A stretch of 64,000 bases of DNA, from positions 434,001 to 498,000 of the forward strand of contig AP026132.1 of NCBI GenBank assembly GCA_030295235.1, written 5' to 3'. Positions 126 to 15,871 of the stretch are shown here, piece after piece; the first letter of the stretch is position 1; the number at the start of each line of letters is the position of its first letter. Source of the stretch: Fistulifera solaris. Its lineage: Eukaryota. Position numbers and translations under genes: made by a program. The notes under the pieces were generated by a model. That model was not told where the DNA came from. It was given only the letters and a program-made list of their open reading frames with translations, and searched no databases.

Positions 126-1544
126 ATGTCAATCAAAATCGATTCTGACAACACTTGCTATCGTTGTTTCTCATCTGAGTTAACTTTTGAGAGAGTATTT
201 GTTGAAAAGATGCCTCCGGAAGAACGAGTCGAGGCCCGCAGTTGCGAGTTCACGGGAACGACAACGAATGCTACGTTTCATTGCTGCACCTCCACTCTGC
301 CTTACCCAAAACGTCCTCTCGAAGACATCAATCGGGGTCTCAATTTGAATTTGGGACAAAGTATCATTTCACCCAACAGCAAAACGCTTCTTTGGGTGAT
401 ACAATTTCTCGATCGCTTGCTCGTCCGATGGTGGGAACCTTATTTTCAGCGTCTCTGGAAATCCATTCCTCTGCACCTCCGAAAAAAGCTGACTTTCGCC
501 GCGTGGAATGTCTACTTTCCTCTTCACAAACGACTACTAGGTCGAACGACCGGAATTCATCCCGATGCGTCACTGGAATATCACGCCATGACGACACTGG
601 CTTGGTGGGGACGAATGATTCCGGTGACGATTGAGCGGATGCGCTTTTCGCTGTCCCAGCTGTCCGTCTGGTCGAACCATCCCGTACTCTCTCGCGTCGA
701 AGTCATTGACGAGCCCATTGCCTGTCCTATTCCTCCCGATCAACACTGGCATGTGAAGGGATTGTACGTGCATGTGGCGGATGAACCCACGGAGTACACG
801 TTACTGTGGATCTACGGAGGTGCCTTTCTCGCGGGCGACATGGAAGGTAATCTCGGACCCGCCGAACGTGTCGGTCGGGAAACGGGCATGGATGTCTTTC
901 TCGTGCACCATCGTTTGGTGCCGGAAGTGCAAATGAAGGATATGTTATGGGATGTAGCACTGGGCTATCATTGGTTGACTTTACAGAGAAAGTCAACAAA
1001 AGTGCTCGTATTGGGCATCTCGTCGGGAGCCGGACTCGCGACGCGGTTGTGTCAGAGCGTGGCAGAGGCCATGCATGGTCGATCGACGCTTCCCGATTAT
1101 CTTTCTTCGATTTTACAAGACACTCCGTTACCCGCCGGAGCCGTCTTGTTGGGACCGTTTGCGGATTACACCACCCCTCGGGGTTCATTGATTACAAACG
1201 CCACTCACGACTTGATTGTCAATCCTCGTGTCCTCGAGTCCGGTTTACCGTATTTGGAAACACACATGGGTGGATCCCGGCGTGATCATTCTCCGATTTA
1301 CCGATCCTTCGCGGGGTGTCCTCCCCTCTGTGTCGTGACGTCGGAACACGAAGCCGTGTACGATCATGCCATTGATTTGGTGAATGCAGCACGCTCCTAC
1401 GGTGTCCCGGTCACGCTGGGTGTGTGGAAGTACATGTGTCACGTCTTTACGTTCTTGTCGAGTTTTGTGCCGGAAGGAGAGGAGTCGATGCAATTTTTCA
1501 TTCAGTGGCTGAAAGAACAGCAACAACGCAAGCAATTATATTAA
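126..1544 (+). CDS. Alpha/beta hydrolase, GDXG/HSL-like esterase (Abhydrolase_3)
   Basis: Oxyanion motif YGGAF, nucleophile elbow GISSGAG, C-terminal E..D and MCHVF His motif. True start may be the later ATG at 210. Confidence 0.8.
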   Translation: MSIKIDSDNTCYRCFSSELTFERVFVEKMPPEERVEARSCEFTGTTTNATFHCCTSTLPYPKRPLEDINRGLNLNLGQSIISPNSKTLLWVIQFLDRLLVRWWEPYFQRLWKSIPLHLRKKLTFAAWNVYFPLHKRLLGRTTGIHPDASLEYHAMTTLAWWGRMIPVTIERMRFSLSQLSVWSNHPVLSRVEVIDEPIACPIPPDQHWHVKGLYVHVADEPTEYTLLWIYGGAFLAGDMEGNLGPAERVGRETGMDVFLVHHRLVPEVQMKDMLWDVALGYHWLTLQRKSTKVLVLGISSGAGLATRLCQSVAEAMHGRSTLPDYLSSILQDTPLPAGAVLLGPFADYTTPRGSLITNATHDLIVNPRVLESGLPYLETHMGGSRRDHSPIYRSFAGCPPLCVVTSEHEAVYDHAIDLVNAARSYGVPVTLGVWKYMCHVFTFLSSFVPEGEESMQFFIQWLKEQQQRKQLY

Positions 1545-1575
1545 CGATGCGTTAATTTACATTTCATTATTTATC

Positions 1576-2514: not shown

Positions 2515-3170
2515 TGTTGTTGCAGCGGACTTGGGGTATAAAAACGAAATATTTTCGTGAACTCTTCCTAAAAAATTCGTCTTGTCGCAGCGTGTCTAGC
2601 TATTCACTAAGGAGTACGTAGTGACTAGTCAGATGAACTTCCGACTGAATTTAGTCATGAGTCAACTGATCCTTCGAAAACTTTAGAGATTAAAAACTAC
2701 AAATACTGCTCTTTCATTAACCCTCCGCAATAAATACCAGGAGACGGTCTCCATCCGAGAGAAAAAGTAAAGCTATCTAAAGGCTATTATCACTTGCGAT
2801 GTTCTTCGTCAATTAGCGCAAGAAAAAACACGCATTCTTCAAGCGATACTGTGCAAAACAAAACATCTCTTCGCATCAATCAGTCATTGCCCTTCTCTCT
2901 CCCATGGTCCTTTACGAAATAAATCGAAATTATCTCTGGTGCGAGAAAAGAAAGGGCCTTTGTGTGAAACAATACTTCAGTCCAGGGGCTCGTGACTCGT
3001 GACAATGAAAAATAGAAATCGGGGAAAAGTAATCTACACTCTGTATGATAGTAGAATTTGGACCATCGCCAAAAAACATAAAAAATGCCTGAGAACTCAG
3101 AACAGGGTCACAACTCACAAAACATAAAAAACCCGTCGTTGCTATTCATTACGAACTCAGTAAACCCGTT

Positions 3171-4253
3171 TTGGGGCCAACCTTCGAGCTTTATGAACAT
3201 CTCATGAGTGAATCATTCCCACAAAGAGGCAGGAGTAAACGCATTGCGCTGGTTCTTTCGCTCTTGGCTTCCGTTTCGCTTACTTTGTGTCGGTTATGGA
3301 GCGATGGCGGCCTTCCAAGTGCTTTCATCGTCGAACAAGCGCACATCAATCGACAACCTTCCCCGTTTGCAGAAGCTTTTCCTTCAGTGAATATCACCGA
3401 TAGCCTGGACTCTTTTTCGAACTTAACAGAACTTGTACAGCTACAGAATCTACCGGTGCCTCGCAACCTCAATATTCTCTTTATGGGAGATTCGTTGACG
3501 CGTTATCAATATTTGGATCTCGTCTATTTCTTATCTCACAATGGCACGTGGCCGTCACCGAACGATCGACCCAACATGGTCATGGAAAAGACGCACCGGA
3601 ACGGCTGGACCCAATTTTACAGTTTCACGAAATCCGCGCTCCAACCGTACGAGCAATGCGATTGCTTTCGTGAATTCAACCTCACGACACTCATTGAGAA
3701 TCGGTACTATCACGATCCTGTCCGCAACAATCGTGTCACGTACTTGCAAAAATTTGGGAAATTGCCGTTCAAGAGCAATTGGAATGTCACGGAGGTGCAT
3801 CAGGAACATAGATTAGTACAAAGTGCGGCGGAATTAAATTTTTTGATTCAAGATGCCGACTGGGTCGACGCCATTCGTGATTTTGTGTGCCATTTGTCAC
3901 CGAAACCGTCTTTGTTCATATTCAATGCTGGTTTGTGGAGGGACCACGATTTGAAAGACGTCGCGTTGCAACAAAAGATCGTCCAAGCGCTGCAGGCGTG
4001 TAACATCCCGAGCATGTTCAAGACCACCACCAAACCAAAGACAAGCGCTCAACCAACGTGGGACGAGTACGAACGGCAATTGTGTAATCTCACGGATTAT
4101 TGTATGGACGTGAGATGGACGGCTCTGGTTCCGGAATCTTACTACTGGGACTGGTTGCATTTCCATGAGCCAATCTACTCCATGTTGAATGTTCAGCTAC
4201 TGTCTATGATCACTTCTCACGTCAACTTTGATGTTGTAGAGGCGATTTCTTAA
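3171..4253 (+). CDS. Type II membrane SGNH/PC-esterase-like (TBL-like O-acyltransferase/esterase) protein
   Basis: N-terminal TM, FMGDSLTRYQY (GDS motif), FNAGLW block and DWLH (DxxH) motif. Likely start is the ATG at ~3204. Confidence 0.7.
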   Translation: MGPTFELYEHLMSESFPQRGRSKRIALVLSLLASVSLTLCRLWSDGGLPSAFIVEQAHINRQPSPFAEAFPSVNITDSLDSFSNLTELVQLQNLPVPRNLNILFMGDSLTRYQYLDLVYFLSHNGTWPSPNDRPNMVMEKTHRNGWTQFYSFTKSALQPYEQCDCFREFNLTTLIENRYYHDPVRNNRVTYLQKFGKLPFKSNWNVTEVHQEHRLVQSAAELNFLIQDADWVDAIRDFVCHLSPKPSLFIFNAGLWRDHDLKDVALQQKIVQALQACNIPSMFKTTTKPKTSAQPTWDEYERQLCNLTDYCMDVRWTALVPESYYWDWLHFHEPIYSMLNVQLLSMITSHVNFDVVEAIS

Positions 4254-4617
4254 AGGGACAGATGTCAGAGACGAGTTACTTTGACTGGATTGCTCATCCG
4301 GAATGGTCGCTTTCGTTCTTGAGTCACTCTACTGAATGCTGACGGTCTCATGGGTCGTCGCTTTCCGCATGTTAAAGAAGCTTCATGATTAGTACTCCAT
4401 GAAAAATATTTGTAGAGTACTTGTAATAACTTTCTAAAGGGAGTGTAAAAAGTTATAAAAATATCCTTAGCGAAGACGAATCATGACTATGCGGGACTGA
4501 GTTATTTGTAAGCAAGTGGCGACGGACAGACACACAGCAACAACACTTGACTTGATAATAACGATCGGGCATGCGAACTCTTTTCATTTCAATTCAGAGC
4601 TTTGAATTCAGAACCAA

Positions 4618-5852
4618 ATGACCGAAGAGGCAACAAAGAAACGAACATTAGGCGGATCTACCGCAGTCGATGCTTATTGTTTAATTGATGGCTTTCTGGT
4701 GCGCGAGGACGACGACACGAACGGCGAGCGCGTGACGATCCCCGTTACGCGATTGCCCGCTATTTTTGGTCGAGATCATGAAGCTGCCGAACCGAATCAC
4801 TTCTTCGGAATCGGGACTTTAAAACTATTTTCGCGAGAGCATTTTCGGATCGATTACTGGAGCAAGGGAGGTCGATGGGGGCAGACGTCTTCTTTGGATG
4901 CTTTTCAATGGGATAACAGTATGGAGAGTAGTGAATTGATGAATCCAGAGGATGTCGATCTGGACAAGCCCTTCTTTACTATTACATGTTTGGGTAAAAA
5001 TGGAATCTTCGTCCAAGGGCGTAAAGTTGAAAGAGACCAGTCGATTGTAATCAAAGACCGCACTGCAGTCAAGGCGTCGTCTCTTTGCTTCTACTTTCTA
5101 CGACCCCTCCATCCTGAATATCGAGCCATAAGTATACCCAGCAATAACGCAAAACCTATTCTTGTTGACAACCGCGACGGCGACAGCGTCGATAGTCCCC
5201 CTTGAAAAAACGACGGGGATTCGGTGGACTCCAAGCCGAGCTGGATGTGTTGAGTACGGACGAACTGCTCGAACAATTCAGCACGGCGATTGCTACCAGC
5301 GTCTGGGAACGCAGGCATCAATTCGTCGGTTCCACCATTTCGGTACGAGCCGTCATGGCCGCCGCTCAATCGCCGGAACTGCACGCCTTGGCGGCCAAAT
5401 CGGGTGATTTGGAGCGAGCGGAAGTCATGGACTGGATTGCCGCATCGGAACGATTCTCCAAGTGGTCACAGCAGATGCTGATGAAATTGGAAGCGAAGAG
5501 TTATCAGGCAAGTATCACGAATGCCATGATCAAGGTGGGATTTACGAGGACCGCCGAGAAGGGTCGGTACATCAAATGGAGACTACCGCAGCAAATACAG
5601 CACTTGGGTGGAGCGGAATCGCCCAAGCCAAGCCCCAACACAACTCCGACCAATAAGACTGTTAGTGACAACGATTCCGTGGATGATAATCATTCTGTGG
5701 ACGAGAAAGATGATGACAAGCAATTGAATGTTTCGAATGATGGGACGCTCGAAGATGAGATGCATGTAGCGCAAACGGGTCATAATCCAACCGAAGAAAA
5801 TGACAAGTCCAATGAAGAAATGGAAGAAGTAGAAGAGGATAAGGGTGAATGA
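4618..5852 (+). CDS. FHA-domain nuclear protein; frameshift at ~5200-5210
   Basis: IFGR...SREHFRI...CLGKNGIFVQG FHA signature; ORF 4618-5205 joins ORF 5202-5852 at cccccttgaaaaaa, which gives a KKRR NLS-like stretch; acidic tail. Confidence 0.7.
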
Positions 5853-6135
5853 TCAACATCCGCTGCCATTTTGTGAAGTCTCGAAAACATTGAGCCGAAG
5901 GAGTGAATGAACACTGCTTTTACAAGGGGTGGATCTTCGATTATACTAGTACGTCCATTTTGAACTCGTATTTAGTCTTTATTGTTGAAAGAGTGAATTA
6001 TGAACTAACCAAATGAATATCTTAACTTATGAATTTATTAGTCAGTGAGCATCGCATCAGACTACCATGCCATCGTGACATGTCTTTAACAAATTATGAG
6101 AAAACTGCAACAACTTCTTGGACAACGTGAATAAC

Positions 6136-8043
6136 TTAGAGGTCAAAATCCGCCATTCCAAGATCCCCCGTGGAAAGGATATCAAAGATGCAAGCATCCC
6201 TGGACTCTTCCTCCATACCAGCACAAGCCTTGGCAGCTTCTTGGTAGGTGACCGAAGACTCAGCCAGACGTCGTCGGGCAATTGCTTCCGGAGGAGGCAT
6301 TTTGCAAGTTTGAGGGAATTGAATTCCATGAAGTTCGGTAAAGAGATGCTTGTCCGAGTCTCGGATTTGCCATTCCAAGCCGAATTCGTCCGTGTTCGTC
6401 ATGACTCTTCCGTCACGTCCTTTTAGTTCGCCAGTAACAAAGTCACCCATGAGACCAACGGCATCACTAAAGTCTTCCGACGCGCGCTGAACGGTAACAG
6501 CAAGGAAGTCGCCGTACATTTTGAAGGAAACGATGCCCTTGTCTCCCATGTCCACTTCAAACTTGTGGCGCCTGGTGTCGTAATTGACGTAGCTGATCGG
6601 GAAGCCAGCAATCTTCTGAGGAAGAACACCGTCGCGACCACCAAGGTGGTTGATGCCACGACGGCGGAAGCCATGGGTTGCCAGGTTGGAGTGGTACACC
6701 ATGTCTTTTGTGACCTCAAAGACCTGGTCGCCGATGCGAAGGGCAGCTTCCTTGATGAAAGACCAGTCACGACGAATTTGCGTGCGAATCTGAACTTCAA
6801 AGCCCAAGTTGTTGTGGAACTTCTCGCTTCGAACGAGAAGGAGATCACATTCGCCATGGAAATCATAAACCAGTCCATGCCACGTTTTCAAGTGCTGTAA
6901 AGAGTATAGTTAGTCATACTGCGAAACAATGATGTGCTTTCAGATTTGCTGTATGCACTTACAGGATCTCCGTAGCCTCCACCCTGATTCGCGGGTCCCA
7001 AGTCAATCGTGAGCGGGTTCAATTCTGATTCATCGATTTCATCTTCATCATCGCCTGCGTTGTTGGCATCGCCTAGGTCAATAGCAGGATCGGCCGGTGC
7101 AGCAGGATCGGCGGGAGCGGCAGGATCGGCGGGTTCAGCGGGAGCAGCCGGATCGGCAGGCGCAGTTTCAACTGGTGCCTCCACCGGGGCCGGAACGGGC
7201 GCTGGAACTGGTGCCTCAACCGGAACTGGAACGGGGGCTGCTACCGGAACTGGGACAGGGGCCGCTACGGGAACTGGAACAGGAGCAGCTACCGGCACTG
7301 GAACAGGAGCTGCCGCCGGCACTGGAACGGGGGCTGGAACAGGAGCTGCGACAGGAGTGCCAACAACAGCACCCTCATTCAAGCAAAGGTCCATTTTGGT
7401 GTATCCATGTTGCGCCTTTCCAGTAGAACCGGTCTCCCAACTGGTAGATTTGCCGGATTTGTAGTTCACATGAACTTCGATTTGACTGCGAGAGGGATCC
7501 TTCATCGCTACGTCGGGTATCTTGAAGCAGCCTTCCCAACCAACGGCTTTTCCACCTGCTCGGACGAACACAATTCCTGGGTCGCCCGTGTACTTGTCAC
7601 CGGTCATGCCCGAGCTGTAGTCTTTGAGCCATGCGTTATCCAGAGAAGGTTCGACTTCCACGCCTGGTTGTCCGAGGACCAAAATACACACTTGCTTCTT
7701 CTCGCAATCAACTCGTTTGTAGGCTACGGCGGCCAACTGGTATCCTTTCCATTTGGAATCGGCGTTTCCCTGTCGGTACATGTTGGCGAAAATGTCACCC
7801 GTAATCCATTCGGTGATATCTCCATCTACAACGATAGGGTTGGCGAGGGAATGGGCCTTCTTGGCATTGAGGGTGCCTCGTCCAGCCAGATGTCTCTCAA
7901 TCTGAAGAAAGCGAGGAAATGAGACGACGGTTCGTATGTTCCGCGATGCGTAGGAAACGCATACAATAACTTACCGACTCGGCATTGGTCGATGATAATA
8001 AAGCGAAGAGGAGCGCTGCTAAGCGTCTGTTTATCATTTTCAT
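6136..8043 (-). CDS. Secreted Pro/Ala-repeat protein with C-terminal GDPH/VWD-like domain (3 exons)
   Basis: Signal-peptide exon MKMINRRLAALLFALLSSTNAES; introns 7902-7974 and 6895-6962 (GT-AG); splicing restores GDPHLKTWHG...FHGECDLLL and C-terminal C..DILSTGD. Confidence 0.8.
7085..7350 (-). repeat. Coding tandem repeats (PVPVAA/PVPA and PADPAA) in the GDPH protein linker
   Basis: Repeats are visible in both the translation and the DNA (accggaactggaacaggagc-type units). Confidence 0.85.
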
Positions 8044-9128
8044 TGCTTGTTTATTGTTTGACTTTTTCTGTCCAAATGCAAAAGCTAAATTTGAAATGAG
8101 GGGCTTTGCTTTTTTCTTCCGTTTTTTTCATGTTGATCGCTTCCATTATTTTCGACGACCAGTTAAGAGTCATTTCCTTATTTCTTTACGATTAACCAAA
8201 TGCCAGTTTGACGTTGACTATGGTCTGACGTGTACGACAAAGAGCAAACAGCGTTCATCTTTACGATCGATGGCATATAGACTTCGGAATACCGAATGCT
8301 GCTGGCCTTGTACACCTCTGTATCGAATAACGAATACCTGGCATGTAAAAACCGTTAAACTATGTTCTACGTTATGACGAAAGACCTCTTAACTCAGTAA
8401 GAGAGTGGACGCTGACATAGTGCGCCTCAGTTATCAATTGTAAGTTCACACGTCTTAGTACAGTACATCCTAGAGTGTAATTTGTGAAACTTTTCCCTTT
8501 TCGCTGGTTAACTCTGGGCTCTGGGCTCTAATAAAGTACTGTGTATCGAGGAATGCTTCAAGGGCAAGCGGCATTCCGGCATTGCCATAGCATCTCAGTA
8601 CTAGTAGTAGAGGTTGAGGAGTTGAGGAGTCAAATTCGTAGGCAATAGTGGACAAGAAAATTAAAAATCTTATCGACAGTACAGCAATGATAGGAAAGAA
8701 CGCACAGACAAGTTTTAAAGTTGAACCGATGACCGTGACGTAAGACTTGAGTCTTCAGTCCCGTCTTTTCTTTCGCTAAGAGCCTCGAGACCTCGAGATT
8801 TTAGAGCCTAAATTTCGGCTTTACTTGTACAGGGTACAGTTACAGTATCCGAACTTCGGGCGTGAAGGAGGCTCTTCATCTACTGTACCAGGTACAGTAG
8901 AGATCGACACGTAGGAATCGTTTGTTCACATTTTGGTCCTGTTTGCTGCGTCACCTTGTCGTCTGTACTTTAACCGCCCTGACAAGAAGATGACGGTAGC
9001 GACAAAAGCGACGCGGCTGGAATCTCCCTCCGCTCGCTTCTGTCTGATCTTTCTTATCAACACTCTTGAAAAAGAATTTAAATTAAGAGGCTACTGGTAC
9101 TATCATCTAGCATTATTTTTTCCTTGTG

Positions 9129-12100
9129 ATGATATTCGAAAAAATGTCTGTCTCCGGTGAAAACGTAGTGGAAAACGATAAGTTGGCGTCAACTTTTGAA
9201 ACCGTTTCTCGCTGGGTCTCTGCGTCGAACGAAAACCCTAACGACGATGATACTTCGACCGACACCAAGTTGAAACTTTACGGACTTTTCAAGCGCGTCA
9301 AAAATGGACCCTGTGAAACGGAACCGCCGCCGGTGTACCGCGTCAAGGCTTACGCTAAGCACAAGGCATGGATGGAATGCTCGGACCTCTCGAAATTAGA
9401 GGCCATGCAAAATTATATTGATTTGGTGGCGCAGCAGACACAAAACACAGTTGGTCGAGAAGCGCAACGACTTGTCGATCAACTGCGAAGCGAAGAAAGC
9501 CGCGTTTCTCCACAAGTTGTGAATGACCAGAGTAAAGCAGCGTTGGCAAGCTCGGGAGCGAGCTCTGTGGAAAAGAAGACGTTTACCGAAACGTCGCGTG
9601 GCAATGTTGGCATCGTTCCGAGGGGAAGCTTGGATATTTCTTACAGCGACCTTTTGTATGCAGCCACGCACTGTCTTTTTTCGTCTCTCAATTTTGTTCC
9701 GAATCCTCGACACTACGAACAAGAAATCATTGATTTGTGGCAGCAAAGTTTGGGGAAGAATGTGGGTGTAATACCTGGATATTCTGCTAGGACTCTTCTC
9801 GATCTGTATTTGCGCACGAAACGATATCCTCTGGGATCGCAAATTATCATTTGTCCGCCTATTACGGTTCCCGGAATCGAAGAAGTCCTACGACATCATC
9901 AAATCGAATTCGTCCCTGTTGATATCCCAGAATACGACGGAGACAGTCCTTTCATATCGGTAGATACGAATGCACTGGAACACGCGATAACAGACAAAAC
10001 GGTCGCCATCATGGTCGTTCATATCTTTGGAATGCTAACGGCGAGCTCGGAAGATATGCAAAGGATACACACGATTTGTAAACGTCGCGGTGTGGAATTA
10101 ATGGAAGACTGTGCGGAGTGCTTTGGTGGGCTTTCTGAGACGGAAAACGATACCAGCACTTACCTCGGTAGTCCACATGCGGATCTTGTTCTTTTCTCTT
10201 TCGGTTTCATCAAAACGGCGACTGCCTTGGGCGGTGGCGTGGCTATCGTGCGAGACAAAGGAACGCATGAATCGATGAAGCGTCTGTTATCCGCTTGCTA
10301 CCTCGATCGCCAGTCCCAAGCAGTATTCTTCTCCAGGGTATGCAAAGCATTTCTGATCCGACTAGTGTCGGACCATCCCGTCATTTATGGACTTTTGGTC
10401 GTATTCATTCAAAACTTTGGCTTCGACTTCGATACTTTCGCTACAGCGCTTCTTCGTGGTTTCAAAAGCTCAACTGAAATGAGTGGTGACTACGTGACCC
10501 AGATAAGATTGATGCCGTGTTCTAGCTTGTTTGCTTTGTTGCTTCGCCGCATAAAGCAGAGAAACTGCACAGCTGAGCTCATTTCAGCGCGTCGACAGCA
10601 TTGCAGACGTTTGGTCGACGTTCTCCAGCATCAAGACGATGTGAGAGTCCCACGCTTTCTGGTTCCTTCCAACTTTCACGCATATTGGCTTTTCCCTGTA
10701 CTTGCTAACAATGTGCAAGATCTCTGTGTATATTTGACGAACCAGGGAATAGATGCCACGCAAGGTGCATCACAGCTCCGTTGCGTCGGGGCGTCCGAGA
10801 AATGTCCGCGCGCTTACAGTTTGATGAAACGAATTATGTATTTGCCCATGTCCCATGAGAGGCATTGGATATCAACACACTGGATCAACAATCTACCACA
10901 ATTCATAAACAATTTTGGGACCGGGGTAGGAATGAAGACCGTGAAAACAAAAAACTTTGGTTCTTCATTTCCTGTATGGGTTGCCTTTTCATTTATTTTC
11001 TTCATATACTATGGCTTCAGCACTTTGCTGGTAACAGTTTGCCCCATACTATTCTTTGTCATGGTGTGTGCCATTGCTACTGCGATCCTCGTGACGCTGT
11101 TTTTACGTTTGAGGATGGCCTCTTTTTACCTCGAAAGTTCCAACGCTTTCGCGAAATATTCATACTTGTTCGATTTGGGGTCTAAGCAACCTTTAAGAGT
11201 GAATAATACTCTGGATGATCTGAAATTTGTCGACGTCGTCGATGCAACTCTTCTGATTTCGATTCTGTCGACACGGAACGCTCCGTTTTATTAACAGGTG
11301 TTACCGGTTTTGTTGGTTCAACGATTCTCCGTGAACTGCTCTGCCGCCGAAGACAATACTCAATTAAACGAATCTATGTCATAGTTCGGCCGAAGGGGGA
11401 CCTTTCCGCCGAAGAGAGAATACATCGCTTGCTCGAAAACCCAATATTTTCTTGTGTGCCCACAGATGACCTATTTTCAGCCATTGTCGTCATCCCGGGT
11501 GACATCAGCCACGCAAACGCTGGTCTGGCCGCGGAAAGCCTTGAACAGCTAAAAAAAGAACGTTTCATTACGCATGTTTACAATTGTGCTGCAACTGTGA
11601 GCTTTACTCAATCATTGCAGGAAGCGGCTGAATCCAATATTACGTCGGCACTGAACGTCCAACGTCTAGCAGCTGAAATGCCATACCAAGAAGTCATTTT
11701 TGTTCATATCAGCACTGCTTTCGTTCATGGTGATCAAAAAGGAACAATAGATAACCCCTTGGGCAACAATCTATTTGACATGAAACCTTACGACCCTGTC
11801 GACGTGTACAAGTCGATGTGTGGAACCCAATACTATGCAACAAAAGCTATGAGTGATTTGGGTTTCTCCAACGCCTACCAGCTTAGCAAGTGCGTAGCTG
11901 AGCATCTCCTCCAGAATTGCTCTCTAAACACGATAATTATACGTCCAAGCATTGTCGGTCCTGCATTTTGTGAATCGTTGAAAGGATGGGCTGGATCCAG
12001 ACCCTCAACAATAACTGCTGCCCCGTGTCTCTATTTCTCGTATCAATGGAATATATGGTCCTTCGGTGACCATGCAGTGCCTTGCATCCCGGTCGATGTT

Positions 12101-15100
12101 CTTGCTCGATTTGTTGCTAACAAAACTATTTGCCACCGACTGTCATCCTCCGAATTAGAAGAAGATCGATCATTATCGTCGGATGAAGACTTTGAGAAGG
12201 TTTCAATCTGTGCTGGAAGATCGAAGCCTAGATACACGATACATGTTGCCGCATGGGATGTGTCGTCTAAAGCCAAGTCGCAGTTCACCTGGCTTCAGTT
12301 TGCTGTTGCAATTACTCAGACTGGTGTGATTCTTGGTTATTTCAGTCGCTCGACGGCATATCTAGGCCTTTGGGTTGCGACGCGTGTTCTCCCGAGAAAT
12401 TTAACGGCGTCACGCTTTAAGCAATTGCATGAGCTTTTTGTGCAAAGCTCTTTCAGCGCACTGCTTGCTTTGCATACTTTTTGTGGCTATTCCAAGAACC
12501 AATGTGGAAGGTTTCGTCGGTTTCTCGATCTACCCGTTCTTTTCTTTCCTTTCATGAATTCATCGTTCTGTTTTTCTTCCAACTTGATACCTCCTCCGGA
12601 TTTTGATGGTGAACGATATATGATGATCTGCCTATCAAGTGCGTCGCGCTTTTTACAGCGGGAACGGGTAGAAAATGCGATCCTGAAGGGGGCAGACATG
12701 CAAGTCGCAGGGAATGAACAGTGCTCTTGGATTCAAGCTTGGTTTTGGGCTTTCACACAGCCAAAGGGTTCGATCGCTATCAGGGCGGTGGCCGCTTTGT
12801 TGAACACACTTTTATGTTCAATATTCAGTAGTGTGATTGTTGATTTGGGGAGTATATGCGACGTTCTACGTGACCTGAAAAAGACTCAGAACACAAGGAT
12901 AATCCTAGCTCCGACACACCGATCATTTTTCGACTTCTTGCTACTGAGTTATGTATGCTTCGCGCTTCCAGAATTGGGTGTTGATGTACCTTTTATCGTT
13001 TCTGCGGATAGTTTTGAGCGGCTCCCCGTGCTTGGAATTGTGGCGAAACTTCTTGGTGCGGTCTTTGTAAGACGAAATCGTGGTCGCATTGACCCTTCAC
13101 TCGAAGCGAGTTTGAATGAGTTACCAGCAAGTTCAGTCATTGAAGTCTTCATTGAGGGCACTAGAAGTCGAGACAGGAGATTTGTGCGCCCTAAAACCGG
13201 TGTCCTCCGCTGCCTATCGGCAAAGAGTCAGAATTATTGCATTATCCCGATAACAATATCCTATGAAAGGATACCAGAGCAGTGTTCCTTAGTCGAGGAA
13301 ATCCGGAATGCTTCGCCTAATGATTTAAGTACCCAGGGTTTGTTCTCATGGGCATATGTAAGTGTCGTTGCCTGTGGCAATGTGTCATCGTCGTCGCTAA
13401 CACCCCATACCCTACGCACCCGTTCCACAGGCGGCCTTCAGCGGAAAAGTTCGGCTTGGCAAAGCTTGGCTCTCGGCTTGCGACGCAGTTACACTTTCCA
13501 GCACAGAGGATAAGAATATTGAGGATTTAGTGATCGAGGTTCAACGACGACAGGCATCTCAGGTGCTGCTATCTTCATACCATGTATCAGCCCTTGCTCA
13601 TCTTCTTGAACTTACCCCGTCAATTGTCAAGGAAGCTCTCTCCGAGCTGGGTTGTAGGTTGTGGTTGCGGGAAGAAGGTTATACTCCTTCGATTCCTTCT
13701 GATCAGGACGAACTCTGGACCGTAGCCCTTCAGGCTAGTGCGTGCCTTGCACCATTATTTTATGAGTCAAGATCCCTATGGGCCCAGTGGCTCTTTTGCA
13801 CGTTGAAGACACTGTGGACAAAACAATTGTTGATAAAACTTCTGTTTCCGCTGTGACACTGGCTTTGCAGCGTCACTTTGACGAGGCAACGGAGTGCGTG
13901 AAAGATGCTTTAGCGCATCTTAAAACGAACGGTTTTCCAAACCCCGAAGCCAATCATGTTCTTCACTTTATATCAACGAAGAAGAGGTGTCCAGTAGCTT
14001 TGGCTAAAGCTGCAATATCACACGAGTTTGGCATTAAGTTCCAGACTGACGAAAACGCTCCTCCGTTTCTCACGAAAATACCGAAGATGAATCAAGCAAG
14101 TCTTTCCTCGGGAGAGCGACTAGGCTTTTGGGGATTTAGCGACTCATTTTTTGTCATCAAGCCATATGAAAGCGGCGGAGCTTACGTCACAATGGCTGGA
14201 AATAGATATTCCTTTGCTGGAAGACAGATCGGTAAACTTATTCCATTTCTCCAACGAGAAACGGGGTTATCAATCGACCTCCTTAATGAAGCATTCCAAA
14301 ATGTTGCAACTGCCAGTGGATCTTCTTTGTCTGCTCTTTCTTCAGAAAACAAAGTATTCTTGGAGAAAATTTCCCGGAAAGTGTCGTACGAAGACAGCGA
14401 GCTAATTCGACATGGAACTGGTCACTCATTGGCGGACATTTGGGACGTACGCAACGGATCTGTTGGCCGAGTCCCTGATGCTGTTGTGTGGCCTTCCTCC
14501 GAAGGTCAAGTGGTAGAACTTATTCGCATGGCCCGATCCCGAAATTGGTGTTTGATTCCTTTTGGTGGGGGTACAAGTGTGTCTCAAGCAACAAAGTGCC
14601 CAAGTATCGAAGTTGACCCTAGACCAATAATATCTGTCGACATGACCGAAATGCGAAGAGTTTTGGCTGTTGACGAAGAAAATGAAGTCGCACATGTCGA
14701 GTGTGGAATTACTGGGAAAGAGCTTGTCCAAGAGATGAAGCGGCTTGGATATACAATAGGTCACCAACCAGACAGCTACGAATTTAGCACGCTTGGAGGC
14801 TGGATCGCCACGAAAGCCAGCGGCATGAAGAGAAACAAGTATGGGAATATTGAAGACATTGTTATTTCAGTGCGTGTTGCTGGTCCAGAAGGAATTATGG
14901 CCCATGGTAACCGAGGGGGTGATTTTCCGGTATGGGGACGTGAAGCTACGGGCTTGGAACTACTTAGCGTCGTCCTTGGTTCCGAGGGGTGTCTTGGAAT
15001 TATTACGAGTGCCGTGATACGGATTTGGCCGCTATCAAAAGTGGAAGATTATGACAGCGTTTTGCTACCCTCTTTTGATCACGGGCTATCTTTTGTTCGC

Positions 15101-15871
15101 GACGTACAAAGATTGGGGTCTTGTTGCCCAGCCAGTATTCGACTCCTGGACAACGATCACTTTCGATTAGGACGGGCTTTGCGAGCCAATCCGGTTTCCA
15201 TGCTACAATCTTTGCGACAAAGTGCTGGTGAATTTTACTTGAAACGACAAGACTTTGACTTCATGTCAACTGTATGTACAACCATCCTTTATGAAGGATC
15301 ACGCGAAGAAGTTGATTCACAAAAGCAAATGTTGAAGAAACTGATAAGTCGTCATGGTGGTTTTAGTTTGGGTGCAGCTGTGGGAGAACAAGGCTACAAT
15401 TTTACCTTTCTCATCGCTTATCTTCGCGATTTTGCGCTCACGTACAATTTTCTAGGAGACTCATTTGAGAGCTTTGTGCCATGGTCGAAAATTAGAACTG
15501 TGGTCGATTCTGTAAAAGATCGCATACGAAGGGAGCATGCAAAACGGTGTCTACCTGGATCTCCTTTCATTGGATGCCGTGTGACACAGTTGTACCACGA
15601 GGGTGCTTGTTTGTATTTTTACTTCTCGATGAGCAGTGCAAACGTTACAAACCCGAGTCGCGTCTTCATGGATATCGAGCATGCTGCCCGGGAAGAGATT
15701 CTACGACTTGGTGGCTCGCTCAGCCATCATCATGGGATCGGCAAAGCGCGTTCCGCTTTTCTCGATGACATTGACTCGCCAGAATGGATCAATGCAAAGC
15801 AAAGCGTCAAACGGGCTCTCGACCCAGACAACATATTTGGGGCACAAAATTGTGGCTTTTCTGCGCGTTAA
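9129..15871 (+). CDS. Putative single multidomain ether-lipid synthase: ACBP + DegT-type PLP aminotransferase + TM + fatty acyl-CoA reductase + DHAP/G3P acyltransferase + alkyl-DHAP synthase (~2,200 aa)
   Basis: Four same-strand ORFs joined by a -1 shift at 11219-11291, a phase-0 intron at 13358-13430 and a -1 shift at ~13795. All catalytic motifs are present (see sub-features). Confidence 0.75.
9190..9435 (+). other. Acyl-CoA-binding (ACBP) domain
   Basis: KLKLYGLFKRVKNGPC..PP......AKHKAW......S..EAM..YI.LV matches the ACBP consensus. Confidence 0.9.
9620..10865 (+). other. DegT/DnrJ/EryC1/StrS-type PLP-dependent aminotransferase domain
   Basis: AITDKTVAIMVVHIFG, LMEDCAE (PLP Asp), DLVLFSFGFIKTATALGGG (PLP Lys), AYWLFPV, LPM. 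Confidence 0.85.
11275..12650 (+). other. Fatty acyl-CoA reductase (NAD_binding_4 / male-sterility-type SDR) domain
   Basis: SVLLTGVTGFVGSTIL (TGxxGxxG, upstream of the ORF-track start), HVYNCAATVSF, FVHISTAFV, NAYQLSKCVAE (YxxxK), IIRPSIV, IPVD. Confidence 0.9.
12700..13800 (+). other. GNPAT/GPAT-like (PlsB/PlsC-family) acyltransferase domain, interrupted by intron 13358-13430
   Basis: ILAPTHRSFFDFLL (HxxxxD), GAVFVRR, FIEGTRSR, IIPITISYE; intron gtaagt...gctaac...cacag restores the frame. Confidence 0.88.
14110..15871 (+). other. AGPS: Alkyldihydroxyacetonephosphate synthase (FAD-linked) domain
   Basis: PDAVVWP, PFGGGTSV, GHQPDSYEFSTLGGWIATKASGMKRNKYGNIED, GSEGCLGIIT, CRVTQLYHEGACLYFYF, SHHHGIG, LDPDNIF. 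Confidence 0.95.

Follow-up and report, generated by a model that had tools for sequence, protein, structure and literature searches.

A DegT-like aminotransferase domain inside a diatom ether-lipid fusion protein and its possible action on a DHAP-type ketone

A 64,000-nucleotide stretch of the genome of the diatom Fistulifera solaris (the window; contig AP026132.1, positions 434,001 to 498,000) carries a long forward-strand gene in which Pfam matches and a hydrophobicity scan revealed, in this order, an acyl-CoA-binding domain (ACBP), a DegT-like domain, a two-helix hairpin, a fatty acyl-CoA reductase (FAR), an acyltransferase of the DHAPAT type and AGPS, the synthase of alkyl-dihydroxyacetone phosphate (alkyl-DHAP). 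The ether-lipid module made up of FAR, the GNPAT-type acyltransferase and AGPS is present in full and in one reading frame, according to Pfam, the reads and the orthologues. The subject of this study is the DegT-like domain, which looks like a pyridoxal phosphate (PLP)-dependent aminotransferase, active in our proposal, of a distinct and uncharacterised clade within the DegT fold. We propose tentatively, with a confidence that stays somewhat short of even, that it might aminate the C2 ketone of a DHAP-type backbone, in this protein probably that of alkyl-DHAP, which would give a serinol-type amino ether lipid.

The DegT-like domain and its conserved residues

The match to PF01041 (DegT_DnrJ_EryC1) is clear (75.4 bits against a cut-off of 19.8, E 6.3e-21) and covers only positions 65-202 of the 360 in the profile. 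Full-length relatives, which are stand-alone proteins, align over domain residues 1-411 with E values of 1e-35 to 1e-46, and the alignment to them gives a domain of 422 residues ending at about 10886. The initial annotation, made from the sequence alone, had set the domain at 9620..10865; its placement within the frame 9111-11294 was right, but the first in-frame base is 9621, since translation from 9620 gives stops, and the end had to be moved. The main features of the domain are the following, all on the forward strand.

9621..10886, forward: DegT-like PLP domain, protein residues ~160-581 (PF01041, E 6.3e-21)
9786..9794, forward: Ser55-Ala-Arg57 in domain numbering, from the alignment to BtrR
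10104-10118, forward: EDCAE motif, from the HMMER alignment to EDAAQA/EDCAQ of QdtB, 7n63 and BtrR
10107..10109, forward: Asp163 (protein Asp322) in EDCAE, presumed partner of the PLP pyridine nitrogen
10194-10214, forward: FSFGFIK motif, from the HMMER alignment to FSF..K of QdtB, 7n63 and BtrR
10212..10214, forward: Lys198 (protein Lys357) in FSFGFIK, presumed Schiff-base lysine
10317..10625, forward: helical insert, domain residues ~233-335, with Arg279, Arg296 and Pro299 (model secondary structure and column counts)

The retention of the PLP-binding Asp and Lys, asserted earlier from the two motifs, is borne out by these alignments and by the conservation of the domain. Asp163, Lys198, Ser193, His134, Arg57, Arg296 and Trp356 are each kept in all 56 aligned fusion proteins (the window and 55 other longer homologues), a conservation well beyond what chance would give, and the loss of the domain or of its Lys from orthologous fusions, which would have told against the initial annotation, was not seen. 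By a looser count the Lys motif was found in 86 of the 89 fusions longer than 1200 aa, the three exceptions coming from a pattern search and not from an alignment. Among the 117 rows of the whole clade Asp163 is present in every one and Lys198 in 116, the remaining row having a gap.

Additionally, a set of residues distinguishes the clade. Arg57, Asp61, Gly195, Arg279, Arg296, Trp356 and Asp378 are present in the window and near-invariant in the 117 clade rows, and they are mostly absent from three ordinary DegT paralogues. Arg57 stands in 113 of the 117 rows (the other four are gaps), where the three paralogues have T, T and S; this Thr/Ser of ordinary DegT enzymes is presumably a contact of the PLP phosphate. 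The insert columns of Arg279, Arg296 and Pro299 are gaps in two to three of the three paralogues. The helical insert is a candidate substrate or phosphate-binding lid, and Arg57 together with Arg279 and Arg296 on the insert would fit a phosphorylated substrate.

An AF2 model of the domain (pLDDT 89.4, pTM 0.92) gave DegT sugar aminotransferases as the best Foldseek matches, with TM values of 0.58-0.66 normalised to the model and 0.60-0.75 normalised to the target, at 14-20% identity. All of the listed matches have the DegT fold and are mostly aminotransferases, with the E1 dehydrase and AHBA synthase besides (E 1e-13 to 1e-15). By sequence the best solved relative reached E 1.5e-8, and the solved relatives match mainly the central part of the domain. 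None of the seven matches to NCBIfam equivalogs (PseC, LegC, WecE, ArnB, DesI and RfbH among them) came near its cut-off, the best being PseC with 49.5 bits against 423.5, and 13 bacterial or archaeal members of the clade were likewise far below these cut-offs.

A separate clade of DegT-like proteins

An exhaustive phmmer search returned 243 proteins at E 1e-30 or better, in which the fusions are followed by stand-alone proteins, about 400 aa long, whose alignments span the full length with 30-38% identity. In three bacterial genomes, one of which (G001) is flagged as unpublished, the clade member scored 449-498 bits against the profile A1, and the other DegT paralogues of the same genomes scored at most 85 bits, mainly in their N-terminal half. 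The database names seen for clade members are either 'uncharacterized' or generic sugar-aminotransferase labels, and a tblastn search of plasmids returned no clade member; its matches were partial and to ordinary DegT genes, with none reaching 80% coverage of the query.

The tree (120 rows, quick IQ-TREE, LG+G4, support by the SH-like approximate likelihood ratio test, SH-aLRT) included the window with 16 fusions, 21 stand-alone eukaryotic proteins, 79 of 80 bacterial loci (one shorter than 300 aa was dropped) and three outgroup paralogues. The clade is parted from the ordinary paralogues with a support of 100, and all eukaryotic members form one clade within it (97). The diatom fusion domains, for which Fistulifera, Thalassiosira oceanica, T. 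profunda and Cyclotella atomus are the named sources, are again a clade (100), sister to three protist proteins ending in SKL, AKL or SRL (81). The final Glu of EDCAE is found in all 21 stand-alone eukaryotic rows and in 11 of the 17 fusion rows, the others having Gln, and bacteria have EDCAQ. Two further proteins of about 590 aa, P0101 and P0158, consist of ACBP and the DegT-like domain alone and may be truncated fusion gene models or a real two-domain form.

The fusion gene and its reading frame

Two database proteins, P0001 (1456 aa, labelled '1-acyl-sn-glycerol-3-phosphate acyltransferase' at JGI) and P0002 (2220 aa, from Fistulifera solaris, labelled 'alkyldihydroxyacetonephosphate synthase'), are colinear with the window between 9144 and 15868 by tblastn. 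P0001 is 100% identical to the translation of the window and P0002 shows 78-89% identity per segment. In the window itself the DegT-like domain lies in the frame 9111-11294, which is followed by two more long frames and a short bridging frame at 13401-13856. By Pfam the first of the three long frames holds ACBP and DegT, the second FAR and the acyltransferase, and the last the FAD_binding_4 and FAD-oxidase_C pair of AGPS. The remaining features of the gene are given below.

9144..15871, forward: whole gene, ~2220 codons (tblastn of P0001 and P0002, Pfam domains)
9195..9428, forward: acyl-CoA-binding domain, ACBP (PF00887, E 1.2e-18), residues 29-106 of frame 9111
10974..11105, forward: predicted membrane hairpin, two hydrophobic helices of 20 residues with TVCP between them (Kyte-Doolittle peak 2.86)
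11250, forward: frame break 1, one T absent from a T run in the window; P0001 reads through
11291..12112, forward: FAR domain, NAD_binding_4 (PF07993, E 8e-46)
12887..13261, forward: PlsC/GNPAT-type acyltransferase domain (PF01553, E 1.1e-18), HRSFFD at 12917-12934
13358..13430, forward: intron of 73 nt, GT..AG, skipped in the P0002 alignment; one contig of run X3 joins 13357 to 13431
13793, forward: frame break 2, one T absent from a T run in the window; the frame of P0002 changes here
14474..15841, forward: AGPS domain (FAD_binding_4, PF01565, E 1.2e-34; FAD-oxidase_C, PF02913, E 1.6e-32), HHHGIG at 15725-15742

The HHH motif is what we take to be the defining mark of AGPS. Contigs from runs of different studies (X1 and X2) carry at full depth one extra T after 11250 and another after 13793, and the two frame breaks are assembly errors, not biology. 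The single reading frame is real, because the X1 and X2 contigs restore both T's and P0001 reads through the first break. The one spliced contig, from run X3, is a weak hint that the gene is transcribed.

Contigs of X1 and X2 also have one extra A at 9138, and the window thus has homopolymer deletions at 9138, 11250 and 13793; as a consequence, other genes of the same assembly may be falsely frame-shifted. Beside the identical contigs a second contig set occurs in X1 and X2, with many substitutions relative to the window at 11599-12040 and with a GGA insertion behind 15245 at partial depth, which points to another allele, a homeologue or a closely related strain.

The initial annotation had found no acyl/alkyl-DHAP reductase domain in the fusion, and this was confirmed: Pfam finds only ACBP, DegT, NAD_binding_4, Acyltransferase, FAD_binding_4 and FAD-oxidase_C, and the Rossmann-fold families Epimerase, GDP_Man_Dehyd and RmlD_sub_bind overlap the NAD_binding_4 stretch of FAR. 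The absence is weak evidence, because in other organisms too the reductase is a separate protein, as described in the accessible text of PMC13256971.

Gene partners in bacteria

Eighty bacterial loci were gathered with the 11-row alignment A2 and were examined by tblastn of partner queries and by clustering of the neighbouring open reading frames (ORFs). Antisense frames over the conserved gene gave large but false neighbour clusters and were taken out of the clustering. In 15 of the 80 loci the gene directly adjoins AGPS (3), the glycerol-3-phosphate dehydrogenase GlpD (6) or a DprE1-like oxidase (6). The products of AGPS and GlpD both have a C2 ketone beside a phosphate ester, and the weak similarity of the DprE1-like oxidase to DprE1 suggests that its product may have one too.

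AGPS lies directly upstream in L010, L037 and L045, all from Verrucomicrobiota. The neighbouring AGPS is 31-34% identical to that of the window in L010 and L037, with which the window AGPS also has the motif SLSHHH in common, and 25% identical in L045, where it is cut by the end of the contig. FAR-type reductases stand near the gene in L010 and L037, and the verrucomicrobial operons repeat the set of reductase, acyltransferase, AGPS and DegT-like protein. The Opitutaceae locus L010 has these genes on one strand:

2822-4714: thioester reductase/FAR
4659-5636: PlsC-type acyltransferase
5998-7995: AGPS
8001-9203: DegT-like protein

A gene for a fatty-acyl-AMP ligase joined to an acyl carrier protein (FAAL-ACP) is on the opposite strand of this locus, and a ketosynthase follows. 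A frame of 1012 aa around the L010 gene, seemingly an N-terminal fusion, was rejected: the first 600 residues form a meaningless Arg-rich sequence, and a different frame of the stretch codes for AGPS.

GlpD stands directly downstream of the gene in L050, L053, L067, L069, L076 and L077, loci that belong to Dormiibacterota and Actinomycetota; L076 comes from the unpublished genome G001 and the other five are arranged alike. No conserved lipid gene was found beside these six pairs. The DprE1-like oxidase, of the FAD_binding_4/ALO type, is directly upstream in its six loci, with a partial match in a seventh. Rarer neighbours among the 80 loci are PlsC-type acyltransferases (4), generic short-chain dehydrogenases/reductases (SDRs; 5) and hydroxylases of PF05118 (4), and no glycosyltransferase or NDP-sugar dehydratase recurs among them. 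Similar partners are found as fusions in relatives of the domain: DegT with GlpD (P0133), with ACP and PlsC (P0144), with FAD_binding_4 of the DprE1-like type (P0156) and with the phosphatase-type domain Exo_endo_phos (P0175).

Several other observations were made in these loci. The PF05118 hydroxylase lies at 736-1557 (-) in L061, 6250-7074 (+) in L063, 7052-7873 (-) in L070 and 7048-7869 (-) in L072; it was assigned by Pfam in L061 and L070 and by clustering in L063 and L072, the loci being alphaproteobacterial with the exception of L063, from an unclassified proteobacterium. This family presumably includes the lipid hydroxylases LpxO and OlsC. Myo-inositol-1-phosphate synthase is encoded within a few kb of the gene in L010 (2008-3669, -; Opitutaceae) and L077 (12591-13910, +; Rubrobacteraceae), which may mean an inositol head group or chance. 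In L076 an integral-membrane acyltransferase related to TMEM164 (TIGR02206; 4493-5215, -) is 2.8 kb from the DegT-GlpD pair; we take animal TMEM164 to be an ether-phospholipid transacylase. The clade member of a Nitrospirales genome (L001 8001-9119; G003:C15:2267913-2269106) has an in-frame TAA, which may come from decay of the copy or from faulty sequencing; downstream of the gene, insertion sequence (IS) elements lie between the clade member and an Exo_endo_phos gene.

Stand-alone eukaryotic members

Stand-alone members of the clade were found in cnidarians (Nematostella, Exaiptasia, Dendronephthya), bivalves, gastropods, sea urchins, starfish, a brittle star, a crinoid, hemichordates, amphioxus, tunicates, a nemertean and a centipede, and furthermore in Plasmodiophora and marine protists; no vertebrate or insect name occurs among the 120 proteins listed. 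C-termini were checked in the 45 proteins with a species or eukprot label, a set drawn without the unnamed metagenome and Logan proteins. As many as 34 of them end in a tripeptide of the type 1 peroxisomal targeting signal (PTS1), namely SKL in 26, AKL in 6 and SRL in 2. Among the remaining 11 there are three with weaker PTS1-like tripeptides and eight with none, including the three tunicates. Because 34 of the 45 end in this way, the sequences point to a peroxisomal location of the eukaryotic stand-alone forms. DHAPAT and AGPS act in the peroxisome as well, according to the accessible text of PMC13256971 and PMC13012113.

Three members, P0114 (Logan), P0120 and P0174 (sea urchin), have Ser-rich inserts of low complexity, 200-300 residues long, that separate the last conserved segment from the catalytic core; the final tripeptide of this segment is SKL in P0114 and P0174 and GHL in P0120.

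Proposed reaction and its alternatives

From the domain, its conserved catalytic residues, the clade, the gene partners and the peroxisomal signals of the relatives we infer the reaction, its substrate, the amino donor and the product. Enzymes that are fused or share an operon tend to act one after another. In the diatom protein ACBP would deliver the acyl-CoA, FAR would make the fatty alcohol, the acyltransferase would make 1-acyl-DHAP, and AGPS would swap the acyl group for the alkyl group. The DegT-like domain would then transfer an amino group, probably that of glutamate, onto C2 of 1-O-alkyl-DHAP, and the product would be 1-O-alkyl-2-amino-2-deoxyglycerol-3-phosphate (alkyl-serinol phosphate), from which N-acylation might lead to a ceramide-like amide ether lipid. 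Amination is placed after the AGPS step because the mechanism of AGPS requires the ketone. In the diatom fusion and in the verrucomicrobial operons alkyl-DHAP would most simply be the substrate; in bacteria that have the GlpD coupling, or the gene alone, free DHAP or acyl-DHAP is more likely.

Several observations weigh against this proposal. FAR or AGPS neighbours of the bacterial homologs, for which the initial annotation had proposed to look, do occur in the three verrucomicrobial loci with AGPS, two of them having a FAR-type reductase, but 64 or 65 of the 80 loci have none of the AGPS, GlpD or DprE1-like partners. The AGPS-linked genes form one verrucomicrobial clade and the GlpD-linked genes form another single clade, with one change each on the tree, so that the independent associations are few. 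Four of five complete bacterial carrier genomes (G004, G005, G006 and G008) lack a match of AGPS grade and show at most weak FAD-oxidase paralogues, and in the single AGPS-positive one (G007, E 2e-84) AGPS is far from the DegT-like gene; alkyl-DHAP cannot therefore be the general substrate of the clade, and free DHAP and acyl-DHAP become serious alternatives. What is supported of the earlier suggestion of alkyl-DHAP amination is a likely PLP enzyme with a functional tie to the ether-lipid steps and a DHAP-type C2 ketone as its probable target, which may be that of alkyl-DHAP, acyl-DHAP or free DHAP. Furthermore the fusions have no PTS1: the window protein ends in GFSAR, and none of the 28 full-length fusions listed ends in [SA][KR]L. 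The known substrates of the DegT family are keto-sugars and cyclitols, and a lipid-linked keto-sugar would account for the DprE1-like partner equally well. In the literature, supplements aside, we found neither natural 2-amino glycerol (serinol-type) ether phospholipids nor a DegT-like domain in ether-lipid enzymes or peroxisomes, and the papers on Guillardia peroxisomes and on N-acyl-serinol make no mention of the domain.

Among the alternatives, amination of free DHAP to serinol phosphate is unlikely but has to be taken seriously. The product could serve as a head group or as a soluble metabolite, or could be acylated as a backbone, and the fusion would reflect a shared pool of DHAP and not consecutive steps. 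This transamination is established chemistry, carried out by RtxA and Cj1437 (PMC3222319 and PMC11800397, in their accessible text). It would agree with the direct coupling of GlpD, a DHAP maker, in six of the 80 loci and its fusion in P0133, with the lack of a conserved lipid gene beside these pairs, and with the four complete carriers that have no AGPS; the phosphatase-type domain of P0175 would fit the conversion of serinol phosphate to serinol. In the diatom protein, on the other hand, such an amination would take DHAP away from the fused acyltransferase, AGPS with its need for the ketone could not use serinol phosphate, and in the verrucomicrobial operons the gene follows directly after AGPS.

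It is improbable that the domain is a keto-sugar aminotransferase that takes a keto-sugar linked to a nucleotide or a lipid phosphate and so supplies the ether lipid with an amino-sugar head group. The membership in PF01041, the structural neighbours, which are mostly sugar or cyclitol aminotransferases, the likeness of the DprE1-like partner to an enzyme making a lipid-linked 2-keto-sugar and the myo-inositol-1-phosphate synthase genes near the DegT-like gene in L010 and L077 would suit such a role. The 80 loci, however, show no recurrent glycosyltransferase or NDP-sugar dehydratase, the scores against sugar-aminotransferase equivalogs are all far below the cut-offs, and the GlpD coupling would be left unexplained.

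We give little credit to the possibility that the domain works in reverse and supplies the pathway with a DHAP-type ketone by deamination of a serinol-type compound, or that it catalyses another PLP reaction or is mainly a scaffold. Transaminations are reversible, and the DegT-fold dehydratases ColD and E1 are among the sequence matches of the domain, but DegT-fold dehydratases carry His in place of the Schiff-base Lys, which is kept in 56 of 56 fusions, and a mere scaffold would hardly keep its catalytic residues so strictly.

The other suggestion of the initial annotation, that the domain aminates a fatty aldehyde released by FAR to a fatty amine, is very improbable: it would agree with the fusion to FAR and ACBP, with the FAR-type reductases near the gene in L010 and L037 and with the alkylamine-bearing lipids of Deinococcus, but it draws no support from the peroxisomal stand-alone forms or from partners of the GlpD, phosphatase and DprE1-like types, none of which involves a reductase, the invariant clade-specific arginines would suggest an anionic, phosphorylated substrate, and alcohol-forming FARs normally keep their aldehyde unreleased.

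Amination of a DHAP-type ketone, with alkyl-DHAP as the probable substrate in the diatom, is thus the reading that we carry forward. A much wider form of it, which we regard as doubtful, would have diatoms, many marine invertebrates (cnidarians, molluscs, echinoderms, hemichordates and amphioxus) and some Verrucomicrobiota make a new, sphingolipid-like class of 1-O-alkyl-2-amino(acylamido)-2-deoxyglycero-3-phosphate lipids by transamination of alkyl-DHAP in place of its reduction, within or at peroxisomes. The serinol of tunicate serinolipids is ether-linked, and the same route might explain such O-alkyl-serinol backbones. The existence of the tunicate lipids themselves is documented in the accessible text of PMC7344992.

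Comparison with known systems

The DegT/DnrJ/EryC1/StrS aminotransferases, such as QdtB (3frk), GDP-perosamine synthase (3bn1), ArnB and BtrR, have the fold-type I PLP fold and the ED.A. and S....K motifs in common with the domain. The clade differs from these sugar and cyclitol enzymes in Arg57, in the Arg-bearing helical insert, in its lipid or triose-phosphate partners and in the peroxisomal signals of its eukaryotic members.

A known system close to the fusion is FARAT, the FAR-GNPAT fusion protein of many protists, which works with AGPS in the peroxisome to give alkyl-DHAP, as reported in the accessible text of PMC13012113 and PMC13256971. As in Tetrahymena, Dictyostelium and Discoba, FAR and the DHAP acyltransferase of the diatom are on one polypeptide; compared with FARAT, the diatom fusion adds AGPS, ACBP, the DegT-like domain and the predicted membrane hairpin, and it has no PTS1. 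Outside ciliates the ether-lipid pathway genes rarely co-occur in Diaphoretickes according to PMC13012113, in whose text, supplements aside, the words diatom, aminotransferase, DegT and ACBP are all absent.

RtxA's N-terminal domain and Cj1437 would share with the clade the proposed chemistry, the PLP-dependent C2 amination of DHAP, but unlike the clade neither is linked to AGPS or peroxisomes. In the NCBIfam scan of the domain no model for a DHAP aminotransferase of the RtxA/Cj1437 type was matched. We assume that RtxA and Cj1437 are HisC-like enzymes of class I/II, in which case the clade would be an independent invention.

Acyl/alkyl-DHAP reductases (Ayr1, DHRS7B and the SDRs of Dictyostelium), which in the accessible text of PMC13256971 and PMC13012113 are separate SDR enzymes reducing alkyl-DHAP, use the carbonyl that the DegT-like domain would use, and at the same pathway step (PMC13256971). 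The reductase, however, is an NADPH-dependent SDR and gives a 2-hydroxyl, whereas the DegT-like domain would give a 2-amine and divert the intermediate to another class of lipids.

Other genes of the window

The ORF 6888-7970 on the reverse strand has a long run of Pro/Val/Ala repeats of the PVPAPVPV type, followed by an Asp/Pro/Ala-rich stretch, and no Pfam match; it may encode a wall or frustule-associated protein. An alpha/beta hydrolase gene at 126-1544 and the genes for a PDZ protein and for coiled-coil proteins, which lie elsewhere in the window, showed no link to the DegT-like domain.

Significance

If the proposed reaction is true, the ether-lipid pathway would have an unrecognised branch at alkyl-DHAP, leading to 2-amino in place of 2-hydroxy backbones, and both the predicted substrate class and the product would be new. 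To the DHAP-type aminotransferases it would add a third type, independent of the others. Lipidomics would gain a concrete target in phospholipase A2-resistant lipids that resemble alkyl-glycerols and bear nitrogen, and peroxisome biology a new matrix enzyme. Furthermore, a function would be provided for a widespread orphan enzyme family of ecologically dominant algae, most marine invertebrate phyla and several bacterial phyla.

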